A DNA stretch of 63,946 bases, the filler included, from Rozella allomycis CSF55 (lineage: Eukaryota), in assembly GCA_000442015.1 (NCBI GenBank). It is 13 parts of 12 records of this genome, joined end to end, with 100 filler letters (N's around TTAATTAATTAA, not from the genome) between each part and the next. Parts side by side here need not be neighbours in the genome. Positions count along the whole stretch, not along the records: positions 10,295 to 23,737 come from KE560793.1; 12 more parts are not named here. One strand, given 5' to 3'. The position numbers and the translations under genes were made by a program. Position 1 is the stretch's first letter. Every line of letters starts with the position of its first letter. The notes beneath the pieces are model-generated. The model was given only the letters and a program-made list of their open reading frames with translations, was not told the DNA's origin and made no database searches. This document shows positions 10,294-24,354 of the stretch, in pieces.

Positions 10294-12287
10294 NACATAT
10301 TGCATGAGAGTCAAATAGGTACAATAACTCTATAAATATTATAAGAAATATCTAATTTTAATGATGTAAAAAATCAGCTCATGTCAAATCAATTGGAAAA
10401 CGAAGAGCGAAAAAAGAGCATGCACTTATTAAAAAGTGAAATCAAACGATTGAGAGATTGCAATGAAGTGATGAAAGAACAGCAGTAAGCAAGCATTGAA
10501 ATCAAAAACTAGCCAGAAGGATATGAAATCCAAGTTGAATCTTCAGAGACAAGAATACGAAACTATTATTAAAAGACACTTAAGTTTCATTGATAAATTA
10601 CTTGCAGAGAAGGATTCTTTGGCCAAAAAATGCGACGATTTTTCTGTAGAATTGAAAAACCTTGAAAAGAGTTTTAAGGAAAAGGAAAGATTAAATTTGT
10701 TTTAAAATCAGGTTCAAAAAGCACAAGATGACGCCAGACTAGATTTTATGAAACAAAAAGAGTTGTGGAACGCTTCTGAAAAACTCAAAAGGGACAAATG
10801 GATTAATGAAAAGTCTAAACTAATCAAGGAAAACACAATTAAAAGCCTTGAACCAGAAATACAAAAGATAGTCGCTGTAAGATGACATAAAAAGAATATC
10901 AAGCAACATAAGCAGCAGATGAGGAATCTAGAAGAAAAACTTCGCACTGATTTTGTAAATGAAAAAAATGAGCTCATGGAGAATCATGAGAGACATATTG
11001 TAAAAAATAACTTTGGTTTCTTTTATAGTCAATAATGAAAGAGAAAATCAATAAAGAAAAAGAAACTAAATTGCTTGAAGAAATTGAGTTTATGAAGAAA
11101 CGCTATCGTCGAGAAAACGAACAAAGTCTTTTAAATTTTGACAGCATGAAGAGCAAATTAATTTTGGAATTTAACGAAGAAAAGGAAAATTTAATTGCTT
11201 CTCATAAGAAGCATGTTGAAAATATGCAAAATTTTCATCGAGGGCAAATTGAAGAGCTACAAGAGACAATAGCTAGATGCAAATTAGAAGGAATAAGCTC
11301 ATTAGAAGAGCACAAGAGAAGATCATTAGGAGATGTAATTAATTAAAGATTACTGAAACAGATGAGGCAACTTGAAGAAAAGATCAAACTGGAAAAGGAT
11401 GAATGGCAGAGTCATCTACTGATAAAGCTTGAAAAACAATTTAAAGAAAAGGAGGTAAGAAATTTAATTGAGAAACTTGTTGAAAGAAATGATTGCAAAG
11501 CTTCGCACAGAAAGGGATTTAGAAATTGACAATATTGTCCAGCGACTAGAAAAAGAAAATAGTGAAATAATAAAGCAGATTGAGTCAACGAACGAGAGAG
11601 CAATTAGTACGGAGCGAAATGTTTTTGAAAAACAAATTAAATCTGTAAAAAATGGATGATATGATTTTCATTAGATGAAAGAAAAAATCAATGAGTTTGA
11701 AAAGAATTGCAAGTTGTTGCAAGAGGCTAATTTGGAAACAGCTAAAAAGTGTGAGCAATTGGAAGAACTGAAAAAAGAGATGGATGAGAAGCATAACGAA
11801 TTAGTAAATAGACTCTGATTTTTTATATAGTCCAATGAATTGAGAGAAAAAGAGAACATGATACTCCAATTTAATAGACAAAGACTTGAATTAAAAGAAG
11901 AAATCAGTAACTTAGCATTCTTCGTGTTTAAAGGAATGGGATTTAAGGAAGAGTTGAGTGCCAAAGACACCGCCTTTGAAACACTTCATAAAAAGTTTCA
12001 AGAAGCAAGTCGACGATTCGATGAAATGCAATCTTTAAACAAAGCAGAATTATCAAGGGTAAATCAAGAAAAAGTATTCTATCCCATCAATTTTGAATAG
12101 ATCGAAGCCATTGACAAAATAGAAAAGCAAGTCATGGGAATGTTGACAGTAAAGGATGAAATTATCAAAAACCTTCGCCTACAAATTGAAGAATCAAAAT
12201 TCAAGATTATAAACTTAGAAAATCTTGTAGAGAAACAAAGAAAGGTATATTCAAAGCATTTGAATGTTATAGGAACTGCTGTTTTAA
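10294..12287 (+). CDS. CEP131: Centrosomal protein CEP131/AZI1 homologue, 5'-truncated, about 11 introns of 27-30 nt
   Basis: Spliced product contains YETIIKRHLSFIDKLLAEKDSLAKKCD, EKLKRDKWINEKSKLIKENTIKSLEPEIQKIVA-QHK and ERDLEIDNIVQRLE, matching the CEP131 coiled coil. Stop at 12285-12287. Confidence 0.82.
10685..10711 (+). other. 27-nt GA-AG intron in CEP131
   Basis: gaaagattaaatttgttttaaaatcag contains an in-frame TAA. Removing it gives ...KSFKEK|VQKAQ..., colinear with CEP131. No GT or GC donor is available in the right phase. Confidence 0.7.
11455..11482 (+). other. 28-nt GT-TG intron in CEP131
   Basis: gtaagaaatttaattgagaaacttgttg; removal gives KEKE|KEMIAKLRTERD. The nearest in-phase AG would make a 46-nt intron. 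Confidence 0.6.
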
Positions 12288-17934: not shown

Positions 17935-18942
17935 CTAGTTTGTTTGTCCGAGAAATCCAAGAGAAAATAAGTCACTAGGTCCTTCGTTTCCATTCATAGA
18001 ATACAAGTATGAATCGGAATTCGAGAAAATGTCTAAAGCCTGTAGGTTTTGTGATTTTTCTATGTCTTTCAGGCTGTGAGGGACATGGTTGATTTCGGTA
18101 TGGCTATCATCTTTCATAAAGTGAGTACGCAGTGTGATACCTTTTAATGGTGCCTGGTTCTGAATTAGGAAAACATCTATGGGTCCATTATCTCGACTGC
18201 AAAGATGAATTTCGTATTTTGCGATGTCCTGGGAATTCTTCTTTCTATTATTCGTTATTATATTTACCACATCAGGGTCAGGAACCTCTAGTGAGCACCC
18301 TTTTGGTGCCTTCACCGCAAATAGCGTATCCTTTGAAAAACAATCGATACTACGAATATCAGAATGTGTGACGAAGGCAAGCCTACTTAATTATTAGTAC
18401 TATTTGTATACTTTTTATAGTCATCATTGAACTCCTGCGTCGAGAACGAACGTTCAATCAAAAATTTTTGGTCGTCTAAAAAGCTTTCTTCCTCTTGAAG
18501 TTCTTTAATTCTTTGCTGGAATCTTTTCAATTCATTTTCTTGTTCCTCTGGTAATTCTTCATTATTCACTCCTCTATTTACACACTTCACAATATCGAAC
18601 CTGTATTTAACACTGTTTTTTCCGACTTTGTCTAAAGTGCCTATCCCTTCCATCACATTTGTTATATCATATATTCTTCTCTTTGCAACGCCAAGCTGGA
18701 TAGCAGCTTGATTTAAATCAACTAAACCGTCTGGTGATTGCCTAATCAGGTTCAAAAACTTTTTAGATAAAGACCCTAAGGAACTCTCAGTTCTGGAACC
18801 TATTATACAAAAATACATACAAAATACCTTGGCCTGTTGATGAAGTTGTTGAATTTAGATCAGAAGTGATACAGATGTCCGAGTTTAATTTTCTCTTTCT
18901 ATTTGGATTTGTAACTCCTAAAGCAGGACTATGAAGAGTCAT
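17935..18942 (-). CDS. E2F: E2F transcription factor, 5 tiny introns
   Basis: RTESSLGSLSKKF...VDLNQAAIQLGVAKRRIYDITNVMEGIG (E2F DNA-binding domain), followed by LAFVT, AVKAP, LEVPDP and GPIDVFL (marked box). Confidence 0.92.
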
Positions 18943-19117
18943 TTAAGAAGAAAATTGTCAAAACCTGTATTTACGAATTTTCAAAAATGGCTGCCTTTCC
19001 AGGGTAAAATTTTTAAACTCCGATTTGAGAAAATACCAAAATCCTATATAAATTACCTGCCCGCGTTCCAAAATCAATTTATTGTTTTCGAGGAGGTTGC
19101 TAAGCAAAATATTTTTG

Positions 19118-21279
19118 ATGTCAGCGAAATACCCGATACCTTCTAAACCAACCATCAGACACTTTCCTTATGAACAATTTTCGCATGATACATCAAGGTC
19201 TTATTCAGCAGAAACTGGAGATCAGAATTGGAATTTTGATGGTAGTTCTACAACAAGTTCATCTTCCGCATTCATAGATCGTTCAATAGTACAGAGCGGA
19301 AAGGACGAAGTAAATTTGGAGTCACAGATTAGAGTTGTCGTTAGGTAATTATAATATCTATCTTTCACTCGAATTCGACCAATGAATGATTTAGAAAAAA
19401 GTAGAGATGATCGATACTCTGTTTTGGCACTTGATGACGGCCAGACTATTCAGGTATTCAAAAGTAATTAAGTTTTCTCCAGGTTACAATACCTGAAGGG
19501 CCACCAAAAGGTCTGACATTTCATAAGGTGCACACAGAGACCTGCACTCAAAAGCAACTGTTTGATGAAAGTGGCGTCATAAATCTTTTAGACCGAGCAT
19601 TGGAAGGGTTAGATTTATTATTTATTGTTATGAAGTTACTCAGTAACTATATTTGCCTACGGCCAGACAAGTTCTGGAAAAACTTTCACGATGACAGGAC
19701 CGGACATTGATGAACCTTTACCATCCGATCAACAGGGTTTAATACCACGGGCTTTGCATTATATATATGCTAAGATAGCCCAGAATAAACAAGCTCATTA
19801 TACCGTGAGATCATCATACCTTGAAATTTACAATGAACAAGTTAGAGATTTGCTCAATATTGGTGGTGCATTAACTCTACCAGTTAGATGGAAACAAGAC
19901 AAAGGATTTTATGTTGAAAATATTTTTGTTGTCGAATGTGATGTATTAGATGATAACTTGGCAGTGTTGGAAGAAGGTACTTATATAAATGCGGGGATCA
20001 TCAAAGGACTAAGAAACCGTAAAACTGGCTCACACAGATTAAATGAAAACTCTAGTCGATCTCACTCGATTATGTCGGTTTACCTGGAAATCGAGAACAT
20101 AGATCCAGATGATAATCGTCTTATTAAGCGAACAGGGAAAATTAGCTTTGTGGATCTTGCAGGCTCAGAGAAAGTGAAGGAGAGCCAGGCTTCAGGGGGG
20201 ACATTTAATGAAATGCTAAATATTAACAAGAGCTTGTTGACGTTAGGTAATTTGATCATTAGTACTATAACAAGGAAATTGTATCTCCGCACTATCAGAT
20301 CCTAAAAAGAAAAATGGTCATATTCCTTTTAGAGATAGTAAGCTAACGAAGCTATTAGCAGATTCATTGGGTGGGAATGGTTACACACTTATGGTAATTC
20401 ATCATTATCATGCATATGGCAGATCGCTTGTATTTCTCCTTCTTCATATAACCTAAACGAAAGTTTGAAAACTTTGAGATATGCAAACAGAGCCAAGAAC
20501 ATTAGGAACAAACCAGTGATCCAAATGGATCCTAGAGATGAAGTATCTTAATGGGTAGTTTAGAATAGTTAATTATGCAATACAAAAGAGAGAACAAAAT
20601 TCTTAAATCGGAGAATTTATATCTTCGCAATCTTTCTGGGCTTGGAACTGCCGATTTGTCACATTTGCATGGAGATCCTGAGACTGTATCAAAGCTAGTA
20701 AGACATTAATGGTTGAATTTTAAGACTGCTACCATGTTAAATTTAAAACCAAGTTTTCTACCTACTGTTCCTAATAGAAATACAAATGGTAATTACGTTT
20801 CTTGGCAATAAACAGAAAGTTCGAAGCAGATTCTTATTAATTTAGAAAAAGAGTTAGAATTCACTAAAAAAGAGAATGTAGAATGGGTAAATGTTTTTTA
20901 ACTTAGTCTAACCTGCAATCACAGAAGAATATGACAGAAATAAGACTGAAAGATGTAATGGAAGAAAATGAGATGTTATCACTAAAACTTGAAAGATTGG
21001 AAAAAGTATTTTTGGGAAAAGAAACCAATTTATCGCCGGAATCAGAGTCATCAACACATGATTCAAATACAAAACCTGATATGCTTGGGAACAAACCTGT
21101 CCACTATAAAAAAGGGTAAATATGCAATTCAAACGTCAATAAATAGTGAGAGAGATGATCAAAAGTCAAGTACAACTGAAAAAGCGCCGTCGTTATCAAA
21201 CGTTGTCATGTCCAAGCAAAAGCTCCAAAAAGAGCTACAGTACCTAGATAATGAAATTCAAAGCTTAACTAAAAAATAA
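19118..21279 (+). CDS. Kinesin motor protein (KIF12-like), about 11 tiny introns
   Basis: [61 protein letters not shown] and [11 protein letters not shown], with a coiled-coil tail. The subfamily call is tentative. Confidence 0.9.
19345..19371 (+). other. 27-nt GT-CG intron in kinesin
   Basis: ag|gtaattataatatctatctttcactcg|a att cga cca restores the conserved VVVRIRP. An in-frame TAA lies inside and there is no AG in the segment. Confidence 0.82.
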
Positions 21280-21348
21280 AATAATTGTGCAATATTTATA
21301 TGGTGTTAATTTTGAATTAGCCACTACTCATTATTGTTTATAAATTCA

Positions 21349-22736
21349 ATGCAAACCTCTCGAATTTATTTATGGGGACACTCTGGTTCCGTAAATAGTC
21401 AAAAAATTAATAGATAGGTTAATAATGAAGCCAGATCAATAAAAGAGCCCAAAGAACTTGAATGCTTTGAATCAAAGGGTTTAACATCAGTGTCATGTGG
21501 TGCTTTACATACTTCGTTTTGTTTTGATGAGAAAGAACTTTACATGATGGGCCATGGTGAATCAGGACAACTTGGAAATGGACTGGGTACATCTTCTTTC
21601 GAGATACCTGTGCATGTGAAGTTGCCCATCAGCTCGGAAGGCAAAATTATTTCTGTTTCTTGTGGATACAGACACACAATAGTACTTACAAGTGAGGGTG
21701 TATATGGTTTCGGAGTAAGAAGCTCTGCAAAAACTTATTAGTGCAATTACGAGGGACAATTGGGCCTTGGATATGAAGAAGACTTAATACCGAATAAGGC
21801 TCTCGTCCCAAGAAAAATAACTTTCTTAGATCCTTATGATGTGGTCGCTGTTGCTTGTGGTTCCAGACATACTCTTTTTTTGTTATCAAATGGACAGATT
21901 TTGGGGACTGGGTAAGGCAAATTTTGTCGATATATAAGCTACAATGCACACGGGCAACTTGGTTTAAATTCAAGAAGAGATTATAATGCCCCTGCTGTGA
22001 TAGAATATTTGGAAAATGCCAATATAGTCAAAGTTACAGCGGGAGAGTTACATTCAGCAGTGTTAACAAGTACTAGGTATTTTAGACTCCAAATATAGCC
22101 TGCGGAGAGTTATATGTATTCGGGTTAGGAAGAGCTGTTGGGTTCGCTGAAGACTGCTTGGTACCAACGAAAATAGACTTTGGGACTCATGAAATAGTAA
22201 GAGATGTACAATGTGGTGCCAGCCATACCTTGGTTCTTACAAGTACACTTTTTATTCGATTTAACATTTAGAACAAGGCGACGTATATTCCTTTGGTGCT
22301 GGTTCCCATGGCCAGCTGGGCATTGGCAAAGTCTGTGTTAAACCCCAGCGCCCACAATTAATCAAGGATCTAGTTGGTAAATATGTTACTGATATTTCCG
22401 CTGGAGTTAGATTCAGTATTGCTGCTACAGGTATCAAATGATGTCCCCTAAAACGTAGCTGATGGTGATGTTTATGGATGGGGTGAAAATGTTGACAACG
22501 TTTTTTGTGTTGGGAAAGAAAACGAAATCCAGGTTAAACCAAAGAAAATTTCCCACTTTGATAAATCCAAAGTAGTTGGAATCGAATGCGGTGGTTGGCA
22601 CGTAATTGCTATAGTCAAGGGAGAGAAAGATCCAAAGGGTACAGATTATGCGTGTTTTTTAATAGCACATGTGAAGGATATCTTGAACGAGGACCCAAAA
22701 TTATCCCTTGCGTTAGGCGATAGACGGAAGTGTTAA
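21349..22736 (+). CDS. RCC1-repeat protein, 7 tiny introns
   Basis: Repeated VSCGALHT / VACGSRHT / VTAGELHS / VQCGASHT and GQLG motifs once 27-29-nt GT-AG introns are removed. Confidence 0.88.
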
Positions 22737-22762: not shown

Positions 22763-22834
22763 TCTCCCATGGTGTAATGGTTAGCACTTTGGACTTTGAA
22801 TCCAACAATCTGAGTTCGATTCTCAGTGGGAGAG
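22763..22834 (+). tRNA. tRNA-Gln(TTG)
   Basis: Acceptor stem TCTCCCA/TGGGAGA, D-arm TGGTGTAATGGTTAGCA, anticodon loop CTTTGAA, GTTCGA T-loop, downstream T-run. Confidence 0.95.
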
Positions 22835-23039
22835 TCGTTTTTAACTTTTCACACCTACCCACTTTCTTCCTTGCTTCTTTGAATAAATCTAAACCACTCA
22901 TATCAATCTTAAAATCCAACTAAAACAAAACATGATGTAGTTACGTTCCGTTGGAATGAAAGAGGTAGGGCTCCGCACACAAACAAACTATTTGCAAATA
23001 CCTTGTTTATTAATTTTCAATTTTAAAGCTACGATTCTA

Positions 23040-23737
23040 AACAAATGCATGCCATAACTGTCTCTGCGCATAACGAGCAACAAAAGTCAGTTATCAAATG
23101 TCAAGATGGACTAGCTCTGAGCTCTCTGAACCCCTTGGATTTAATCATGGCAAACGACTGACCACAAATTCGACAATCTGCTCGGCAAAAGACTCTTGCG
23201 TGAACACAGAACTCATTCTGTGCATTTTTCGCAAATGTCAGACACAGCGTCGTCTTACCAGCTTGCACTCTTTCGCATTGGATGTTGTGTCCCCTTGCGC
23301 AGCGTAGTGCGTACGTAAGGAGATTCGACGTCGTCTTTGGATTATGCTTAAGCATCTTAAAAGGGATTTGGCCTTGGTACTATTCTCTTCCAGCGTGAAT
23401 GTCTTCCAGACGTCTGATGCTTGTTTGCCATAGGCAGGTGCAGAAGTAGATGCGATATTGCTGACAGAGTCAGTTACTTCAANTCAAATGTCAAGATGGA
23501 CTAGCTCTGAGCTCTCTGAACCCCTTGGATTTAATCATGGCAAACGACTGACCACAAATTCGACAATCTGCTCGGCAAAAGACTCTTGCGTGAACACAGA
23601 ACTCATTCTGTGCATTTTTCGCAAATGTCAGACACAGCGTCGTCTTACCAGCTTGCACTCTTTCGCATTGGATGTTGTGTCCCCTTGCGCAGCGTAGTGC
23701 GTACGTAAGGAGATTCGACGTCGTCTTTGGATTATGC
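23040..23737 (-). mobile_element. hAT-like transposase remnant
   Basis: SDVWKTF (BED-finger-like) and SFAMIKSKGFRELR (compare hAT PFS.VE..GF.EL). Frameshifted; duplicated across N at 23483. Confidence 0.45.
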
Positions 23738-24354
23738 NNNNNNNNNNNNNNNNNNNNNNNNNNNNNNNNNNNNNNNNNNNNTTAATTAATTAANNNNNNN
23801 NNNNNNNNNNNNNNNNNNNNNNNNNNNNNNNNNNNNNTAGTTTCAATTCATCTTACTTTCATCTTTTAAGACATCCAACCATCCATTCATTAGGTACTGG
23901 GTATCAATATCTTTATTACCTCACGCTGCGTTTGGGGCATATATGTTGAAGTTTTACATACATTGTATTTCAGGCACCAAGTTCAAAGTCACCCTTTAGT
24001 GTAGAAGTTTAGTAATGACTTCAAAATTACCGCATGTGTTTGTTTCTGACAAACTGCTTTGACGGCCAATTCACGGTCAAGACGGACATCTGACTCACTA
24101 TTGTGACTATGGTAGATAATTATACGTCAAACAAATGCTTTGACGTTACCATCAAAAAACTGGTTGCCATTGTAAACAATGGAGGAAAAAAGGTTTTCCT
24201 CATGACCAAATCCGGAAGCCGACATCTCACTCTTATCCAACCTGAAAACAGTTAGGGTAATGTGGCGTGTTCGAAATAAAGCGACACGTCACTAAAAAAG
24301 GTGTGATGGAGCTTTTGTAACAGCCACCAAATTTAATTGACAACAACAGGAGCA

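Follow-up and report, generated by a model that had tools for sequence, protein, structure and literature searches.

A 27-nucleotide (nt) insert in the kinesin-12-like gene of Rozella allomycis CSF55 begins with GT, ends with CG and, as we read it, is precisely spliced out as a U2-type intron with a relaxed YG 3′ splice site (Y, pyrimidine). The insert lies at positions 19345–19371 of a 63,946-base window of the draft genome (the whole stretch of DNA analysed here, along which all positions are counted), and we give this reading a probability of roughly three in four. Three further introns without a terminal AG interrupt LST8, the gene for a subunit of the TOR complex. Because these three introns use the same relaxed acceptor, YG looks like a property of the splicing of this organism and not of the kinesin gene.

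The window is made of draft contigs chained throughout by N44-TTAATTAATTAA-N44 linkers, and the draft assembly contains many single N. The kinesin gene lies on the contig at 10295–23737 and LST8 on a separate one at 34659–46808. The G content is about 18%, the value used below for chance estimates, and an excerpt of a published study puts the intron density of Rozella at 2.5 per kb (PMC8476143).

The kinesin gene and its 27-nt insert

The identity of the gene is clear. The translation of its largest exon, used as a query, retrieved the public model P0001 (Table 1), which is named as a kinesin-domain-containing protein of R. allomycis CSF55 and which maps on the DNA from 19118 to a last codon that ends at 21276. 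The product matches the Pfam Kinesin family (PF00225, E 6.7e-64) and carries the P-loop and the switch motifs of a kinesin motor domain; among the best matches, many are named kinesin protein 12 or KIF12.

The insert reads GTAATTATAATATCTATCTTTCACTCG, with GTAATT at its 5′ end, CTCG at its 3′ end and AG nowhere within it, so that it has the GT donor of the canonical GT-AG class and lacks the AG at the other end. Read through in the upstream frame, the sequence runs GTT AGG TAA TTA TAA and contains two in-frame TAA codons, which count as stops since Rozella uses the standard genetic code. Deletion of the 27 nt gives GTT AG|A ATT CGA CCA, that is V-R-I-R-P, and the frame continues as I R P M N D L E K. 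Two equivalent 27-nt deletions, and no others, would yield this mRNA, one cut as GT..CG and the other, one base to the left, as GG..TC. A preliminary description of this DNA had reported a 27-nt GT...CG insert with an in-frame TAA and no AG, and the sequence confirms this anatomy, with two in-frame TAA in place of one. A ciliate genetic code (table 6) was also considered, as the introns are tiny and TAA and TAG appear in frame in the tail of the kinesin; it was rejected, both because those codons sit inside 26–27-nt GT-AG introns and because the source of the DNA is the cryptomycotan parasite R. allomycis CSF55. The boundary between the insert and the following exon falls inside a perfect 10-bp palindrome, TCGAATTCGA, with an EcoRI site (19369–19378), probably by chance.

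The extent of the segment that would leave the RNA is set by the homologues. An N-terminus translated without the 27 nt was compared by BLASTP with 59 homologues (P0002–P0060). The match spans the junction in 38 of the 59, all 38 are ungapped at R|IRP, and the RP is present in 37 of them; the other 21 show no high-scoring segment pair (HSP) over the N-terminal part, and at least one of these, P0003, begins inside the motor. The beta-1/RxRP strand is present only when the 27 nt are taken out, VVVRIRP then standing against VV[IVA]R[AIV]RP in 37 of the 38 homologues. In the nearest relatives the sequence is IRVVIRARPMNTMEKQRADQ (Paraphelidium, P0002) and VKVVIRIRPLNQLESQRNDG (Amoeboaphelidium, P0009). 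The earlier proposal that removal restores VVVRIRP is thus borne out by 38 ungapped junctions out of 38. The RxRP strand is part of the kinesin nucleotide pocket, and a kinesin motor that lacks it is unlikely to function.

P0001 treats the region differently. It takes a 60-nt GT-AG intron from the same donor, discards 33 nt along with the 27 nt of the insert, and reads VVVRDDRYSV. The 33 nt encode 11 conserved residues, including the RxRP motif, and these residues match ARPMNTMEKQR in Paraphelidium (P0002) and IRPLNQLESQR in Amoeboaphelidium (P0009). Because of this match the 33 nt are coding and, the homologues being ungapped, the segment that leaves the RNA would therefore be exactly the 27-nt insert. 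P0001 departs from the homologues elsewhere as well. Its mapping gives ten annotated introns of 60, 29, 28, 28, 29, 26, 27, 63, 20 and 31 nt; an eleventh, of 30 nt (Table 1), is kept as coding sequence in P0001, where it adds 10 residues that the homologues lack. Within its 63-nt intron (20789–20851), a 27-nt in-frame GT-AG alternative (20789–20815) would retain 12 more residues. A search of the PDB with the 27-residue exon 2 returned 0 matches, the query being too short, and a metagenome scan with the kinesin found no relative in which the orthologous intron could be compared.

Probable non-AG introns in LST8 and the local intron population

In LST8, four of the introns are GT-AG and three are not (Table 1). 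For these three, donors were tried up to 18 nt away and acceptors between 30 nt upstream and 40 nt downstream, and no combination gave an in-phase GT-AG intron. The curated protein aligns without gaps at all three junctions with its counterparts in Sorochytrium (P0121) and Cladochytrium (P0138); beside the second junction a single residue is added in P0122, an unnamed record of transcript size. Identities to P0121, P0138 and P0122 are 199/311, 182/301 and 191/313 for the curated protein, against 161/276, 150/266 and 155/278 for the public model (P0156, 279 aa). The public model is 35 residues shorter, reads through the first CG intron, and drops most of a WD repeat together with a 19-residue segment. 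Two metagenome records, L001 and L055, match residues 13–313 and 92–313 of the curated protein as single uninterrupted HSPs. A metagenome scan with the LST8 alignment returned 80 loci, the best of them intronless and 67% identical to the curated protein, with no close rozellid among them.

The LST8 acceptors are also seen in DNA contigs outside the draft assembly's own records. A contig of run X1 (record 2; 1239 nt, depth 262) equals window positions 36697–37935 with 0 differences and 0 gaps. Another, of run X3 (record 14), spans 37189–37903; its sole differences, at 37570, 37581, 37583 and 37615, fall in none of the non-AG introns. Because the X1 contig is identical and the X3 differences lie elsewhere, the LST8 acceptors are not assembly errors. 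The four X3 differences (C>A, G>C, a 1-nt deletion and C>T), found in a low-depth contig, lie in or just after LST8 intron 6 and may be amplification errors or strain variation. At the RNA level, run X10 gave only three pieces on the LST8 contig, of 33–37 nt and 90–95% likeness, which fall in an AAA-ATPase motif and come from other organisms; run X9 gave no match to this contig.

These results bear on three remarks of the preliminary description. It had pointed to LST8, a different gene on a different contig, as a parallel to the kinesin; the parallel holds and is stronger than claimed, with three non-AG introns rather than one. It had considered a sequencing error less likely, which the letter-perfect X1 contig over LST8 supports for the non-AG class, and pseudogenisation less likely, in keeping with the intact and highly conserved exons of both genes.

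How unusual is the insert among the introns of this genome? As a reference we used 97 GT-AG introns, ten from the curated kinesin and 87 that a heuristic parse found across the window; among the latter are some spurious bridges between neighbouring genes. Most of the 97 (76) are 25–30 nt long, the mode being 26–29 nt, and only 6 reach at least 50 nt, some of these being parse artefacts. Donors begin with GTA in 79 and with GTAA, the commonest form, in 48; the base at −3 of the acceptor is T in 45 and A in 36. By length and donor the 27-nt insert is typical of this population, and its sole unusual base is the one at acceptor position −2. The gene for V-ATPase subunit D, also in the window, has four AG introns, the first an ordinary 26-nt GT-AG intron in phase 2.

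To count non-AG introns, a stricter parse was used, which yielded 87 AG and 11 non-AG introns; once the latter had been inspected and screened for AG alternatives, only the three in LST8 were left. An overlapping merged model hid the kinesin locus from this parse, and that locus was therefore curated by hand. The robust non-AG introns are therefore four among the roughly one hundred putative introns of the window. Their acceptors are TCG, TCG, TCG and TTG, with a terminal G and a pyrimidine at −2 in all four; with GT fixed at the 5′ end, four terminal G would arise by chance with a probability of about 0.001 at 18% G. Long AG introns of the parse were checked for hidden 24–32-nt alternatives that end in G, and no convincing case was found. 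A parse by dynamic programming with a free acceptor was abandoned, as it merged neighbouring genes and its non-AG "introns" were mostly spurious. Two 28-nt inserts that begin with GTA and end with TG, at 11455–11482 (+) and 17569–17542 (−), were left uncounted, having in-phase AG alternatives and lying in unconserved sequence. The first is in a coiled-coil gene and the second in the unconserved N-terminus of a TBC/RabGAP gene, and the removal of either would join open frames.

Table 1. Coordinates of the kinesin and LST8 features in the window, with the basis for each.
Feature	Position	Strand	Basis
Kinesin-12-like gene, public model P0001 (606 aa)	19118..21279	+	P0001 100% identical over the 202-aa query; Pfam Kinesin
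Kinesin exon 1, ending ...SQIRVVV plus AG (bases 1–2 of an Arg codon)	19118..19344	+	Translation; homologue alignment; P0001 mapping
27-nt phase-2 insert, proposed GT-CG intron	19345..19371	+	Sequence; equivalent cuts; ungapped homologue junctions
Kinesin exon 2 in the 27-nt model, completing the Arg codon; next intron from 19454	19372..19453	+	Translation; homologue alignment; P0001 mapping
60-nt GT-AG intron of the public model	19345..19404	+	P0001 mapping
In-frame 30-nt GT-AG intron, no stop codon	19977..20006	+	Homologues P0002 and P0009 read LEEGLRNR without the insert
LST8 (TOR complex subunit), seven tiny introns, curated product 314 aa	36723..37868	+	Homology-guided model
LST8 intron 2, 28 nt, GTAAAG...ATCG (GT-CG), joins SGP/VQV	36986..37013	+	No in-phase GT-AG alternative; gap-free alignment; X1 contig identical
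LST8 intron 3, 28 nt, GTAAAC...ATCG (GT-CG), phase 2, joins WDF(R)TPK	37127..37154	+	No in-phase alternative; alignment; X1 contig identical
LST8 intron 4, 28 nt, GTAATT...TTTG (GT-TG), joins HEL/VPE	37303..37330	+	No in-phase alternative; alignment; X1 record 2 and X3 record 14, 0 differences there

A proposed relaxed 3′ splice site and the alternatives

What could allow the spliceosome to use such acceptors? We lean towards the view that in R. allomycis CG or TG acceptors serve constitutively in a minority of the ultra-short introns, about four in a hundred in the window, with the acceptor set by its distance from the branch site and with AG proofreading of the Prp18/Slu7/Prp8 type relaxed or lost. 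In this scheme U1 and U6 would recognise the GUAA donor (the intron begins GUAAUU) and U2 would pair with a weak branch site presumably a few nt from the 3′ end. In an intron of 27–28 nt the branch site would lie at most about ten nt from the acceptor, a geometry that would leave hardly any choice, and in the second step only one G would come within reach of the catalytic centre. Structures have established that the first and last G of an intron pair there; the terminal G would be kept for this pairing, and the replacement of the A at −2 by a pyrimidine would be tolerated. Ligation of 19344 to 19372 would then restore the beta-1/RxRP nucleotide-binding strand, VVVRIRP, and the two in-frame TAA would make any unspliced transcript a nonsense message. 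With ultra-short introns throughout, selection on AG may be weaker and A-to-Y changes could become fixed, and Rozella may have drifted into this regime.

Compared with the GT-AG introns of Rozella itself, the non-AG introns share the GTAA donor, a length of 27–28 nt against a mode of 26–29 nt, the AT-rich body and the phase behaviour. They differ in having C at −2 (T in one LST8 intron) where the others have A, so that TCG and TTG resemble TAG with its A replaced. Known non-canonical introns, which are likewise removed precisely, include the GC-AG class, the AT-AC introns of the U12 and U2 types and the diverse introns of the tunicates Oikopleura and Fritillaria. In GC-AG introns the donor is changed and AG is kept, and in AT-AC introns both terminal bases are changed, whereas GT-CG and GT-TG introns keep both terminal G and change only −2. 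The tiny introns of Paramecium and other ciliates are reportedly of about 25–30 nt and GT-AG (Jaillon et al, 2008), and those with a length that is a multiple of three are said to carry in-frame stops. Ciliate introns thus resemble those described here in length and in the nonsense that follows retention; they differ in their GT-AG ends, and Rozella belongs to the fungal lineage and has a standard code.

The closest precedent comes from budding yeast. According to the sections of Roy et al (2023; PMC10711555) on which we draw, Saccharomyces cerevisiae without Prp18p uses BG acceptors (C, G or U at −2), of which ACG in PHO85, UUG in SPT14, CUG in MAF1 and UGG in UBC12 were confirmed by reverse-transcription PCR. 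The same sections describe these sites as lying preferentially near the branch point, and Prp18p and Slu7p as dispensable when the distance from branch to acceptor is short (PMC10711555). Because spliceosomes that lack Prp18 use BG sites, the chemistry of a non-AG acceptor is possible (PMC10711555). The yeast and Rozella sites have in common the retained terminal G, a base other than A at −2 and, as far as those sections go, proximity to the branch point, a short branch distance being expected in every 27-nt intron. In contrast, the yeast sites as described there are rare and mostly unproductive side products of a mutant, whereas those of Rozella would be the sole productive acceptors of wild-type genes, one of which is essential in other eukaryotes.

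In the literature searched on introns and splicing in Rozella and on short introns with non-AG sites, neither GT-CG nor GT-TG introns are described for Rozella or for other fungal relatives; the searches did not cover the original genome paper (James et al, 2013), which may bear on the point. The part of one report that concerns Rozella GTPase genes states that they were curated with unpublished RNA-seq and makes no mention there of splice sites (PMC13393502). As far as these searches reach, the constitutive use of GT-CG or GT-TG spliceosomal introns is unreported in fungi or their relatives.

Several points weigh against a GT-CG intron in the kinesin gene. The case for splicing is drawn from the conservation of the protein. 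Almost all U2-type introns end with AG, and the second step is normally blocked when the A is mutated. In-phase AG acceptors that would give introns of 57 and 60 nt exist, and the public annotation uses the latter. In two of the LST8 introns the spliceosome would need to pass over an out-of-phase AG 7 nt downstream, as judged by eye. LST8 contributes three of the four robust non-AG introns, which is odd under a genome-wide rate of about 4%, and this clustering suggests something specific to LST8. The branch site could not be assigned: inspection by eye offers the A at position 16 of the insert (CTATC) or at position 23 (TTCAC), and a position table of the local introns reveals no strong branch consensus. 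Finally, the evidence for C at 19370 is indirect and consists of 31-mer words, of which X3 holds 0.99.

The most serious alternative, which we nevertheless regard as unlikely, is that the public model is right and that, following a recent AG-to-CG mutation, splicing shifted to the AG at 19403–19404 (60 nt) or at 19400–19401 (57 nt), leaving a kinesin without RxRP that is probably crippled. The first AG acceptor beyond the insert would give the kinesin donor an out-of-frame intron of 50 nt; those that follow would give 57 and 60 nt, both in frame, and then 62 nt. Both in-frame versions are free of stops and need no unusual chemistry, and P0001 adopts the longer. The 33 nt thereby made intronic, however, would still encode 11 residues of the family consensus, so that their loss would need to be very recent. 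Introns of such length are also rare locally, as the 6 of 97 cited above indicate, and the rest of the kinesin gene is intact across its other ten introns. The same explanation fails for LST8, where there is no in-phase AG, and non-AG splicing would be needed for this organism anyway.

We give little credence to a second alternative, an ordinary 27-nt GT-AG intron whose C at 19370 reflects a mistake of assembly or base calling, or else a minor allele. Single N are frequent in the draft assembly, and X3 lacks about 1% of the sampled words. But among the 257 31-mers sampled from 18900–21400, X1 and X2 hold 1.00 each (X3, 0.99); these are two samples from two studies, and the assembly may derive from either. 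On the assumption that the sampling took a tenth of all 31-mers at random, we estimate a chance of only about 15% that 19370 is covered by no more than one word. In LST8 the acceptors are letter-perfect in the X1 contig at a depth of 262, and errors would need to strike −2 of four introns.

Slightly less credible again is retention of the insert, the locus being either a kinesin pseudogene or a gene for an N-terminally truncated motor that starts at an internal ATG at 19382. The two in-frame TAA after VVVR and the position of this ATG, 11 nt beyond the insert, are compatible with it. Against this, the upstream open reading frame (ORF) ends in the conserved beta-1 sequence IRVVVR, which aligns to the homologues and is therefore coding; no other disabling change is found in the 2.1-kb gene with its 11 introns; and the donor and length of the insert are those of a typical local intron.

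Removal by something other than the major spliceosome, whether as a U12-type intron, as an element of ciliate-style DNA elimination or as a euglenid-style nonconventional intron, would also account for a non-canonical 3′ end on a 27-nt insert, but we consider it the least probable, since the donor GTAATTAT is off the U12 consensus (RTATCCTT), no branch motif like TCCTTAAC occurs in the 27 nt, the only equivalent cuts (GT..CG and GG..TC) are not bounded by TA and the host is no ciliate, the equivalent LST8 inserts are present in DNA contigs at full depth, and no obvious complementarity between the ends of the insert was seen by eye, without folding. A U12-type intron could not be nearly as short as 27 nt. 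A Paramecium-type internal eliminated sequence was likewise set aside for want of TA boundaries.

Other features of the window, and implications

The remainder of the window holds several features apart from the two genes. A stretch of a few hundred bases seems to be repeated on both sides of the linker at 23738–23837 (22960–23949), with identical ORF translations, as if the contig ends overlap or share a repeat. Between 27600 and 32200 lies a retroelement with a 683-codon ORF that matches reverse transcriptase (RVT_1, E 1.4e-18), and a zf-RVT piece is found on the next contig; this region has a strong negative GC skew and a positive AT skew. Two tRNA-Glu(TTC) genes with identical Rfam scores, at 37909–37980 and 39022–39093 (−), flank the gene for V-ATPase subunit D, and a tRNA-Gln(TTG) gene at 22763–22834 (+) follows an RCC1-like gene. 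At 47007–47561 ORF boundaries recur every 101 nt, pointing to tandem repeat units of about that length. At 45189–45998 the summed contig depth in X1 rises from about 280 to 27,000–54,000, with many loose ends, as might be expected of a repeat in very high copy number or of an organelle-like segment.

Few signals of eukaryotic gene expression are as constant as the AG that closes an intron. If a GT-CG intron is indeed spliced in the kinesin, the routine use of CG and TG acceptors by a wild-type organism, in genes that are conserved and probably essential (one for a kinesin motor, the other for a subunit of the TOR complex), would offer a natural experiment on the choice and proofreading of the 3′ splice site in the second step, with a direct tie to the work on Prp18, Slu7 and Prp8 fidelity in yeast.

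There would also be consequences for the genome itself. The public kinesin and LST8 models are wrong at exactly these introns, the kinesin lacking the RxRP strand and containing a translated intron, and LST8 lacking 35 residues. If the non-AG introns are real, gene predictors restricted to GT-AG would have damaged the public Rozella proteome systematically, conserved segments having been lost in both of the two genes examined in detail. Rozella is the key outgroup from which genome reduction in Microsporidia is traced, and this may in turn have biased published inferences of gene reduction at the base of the lineage of Microsporidia.

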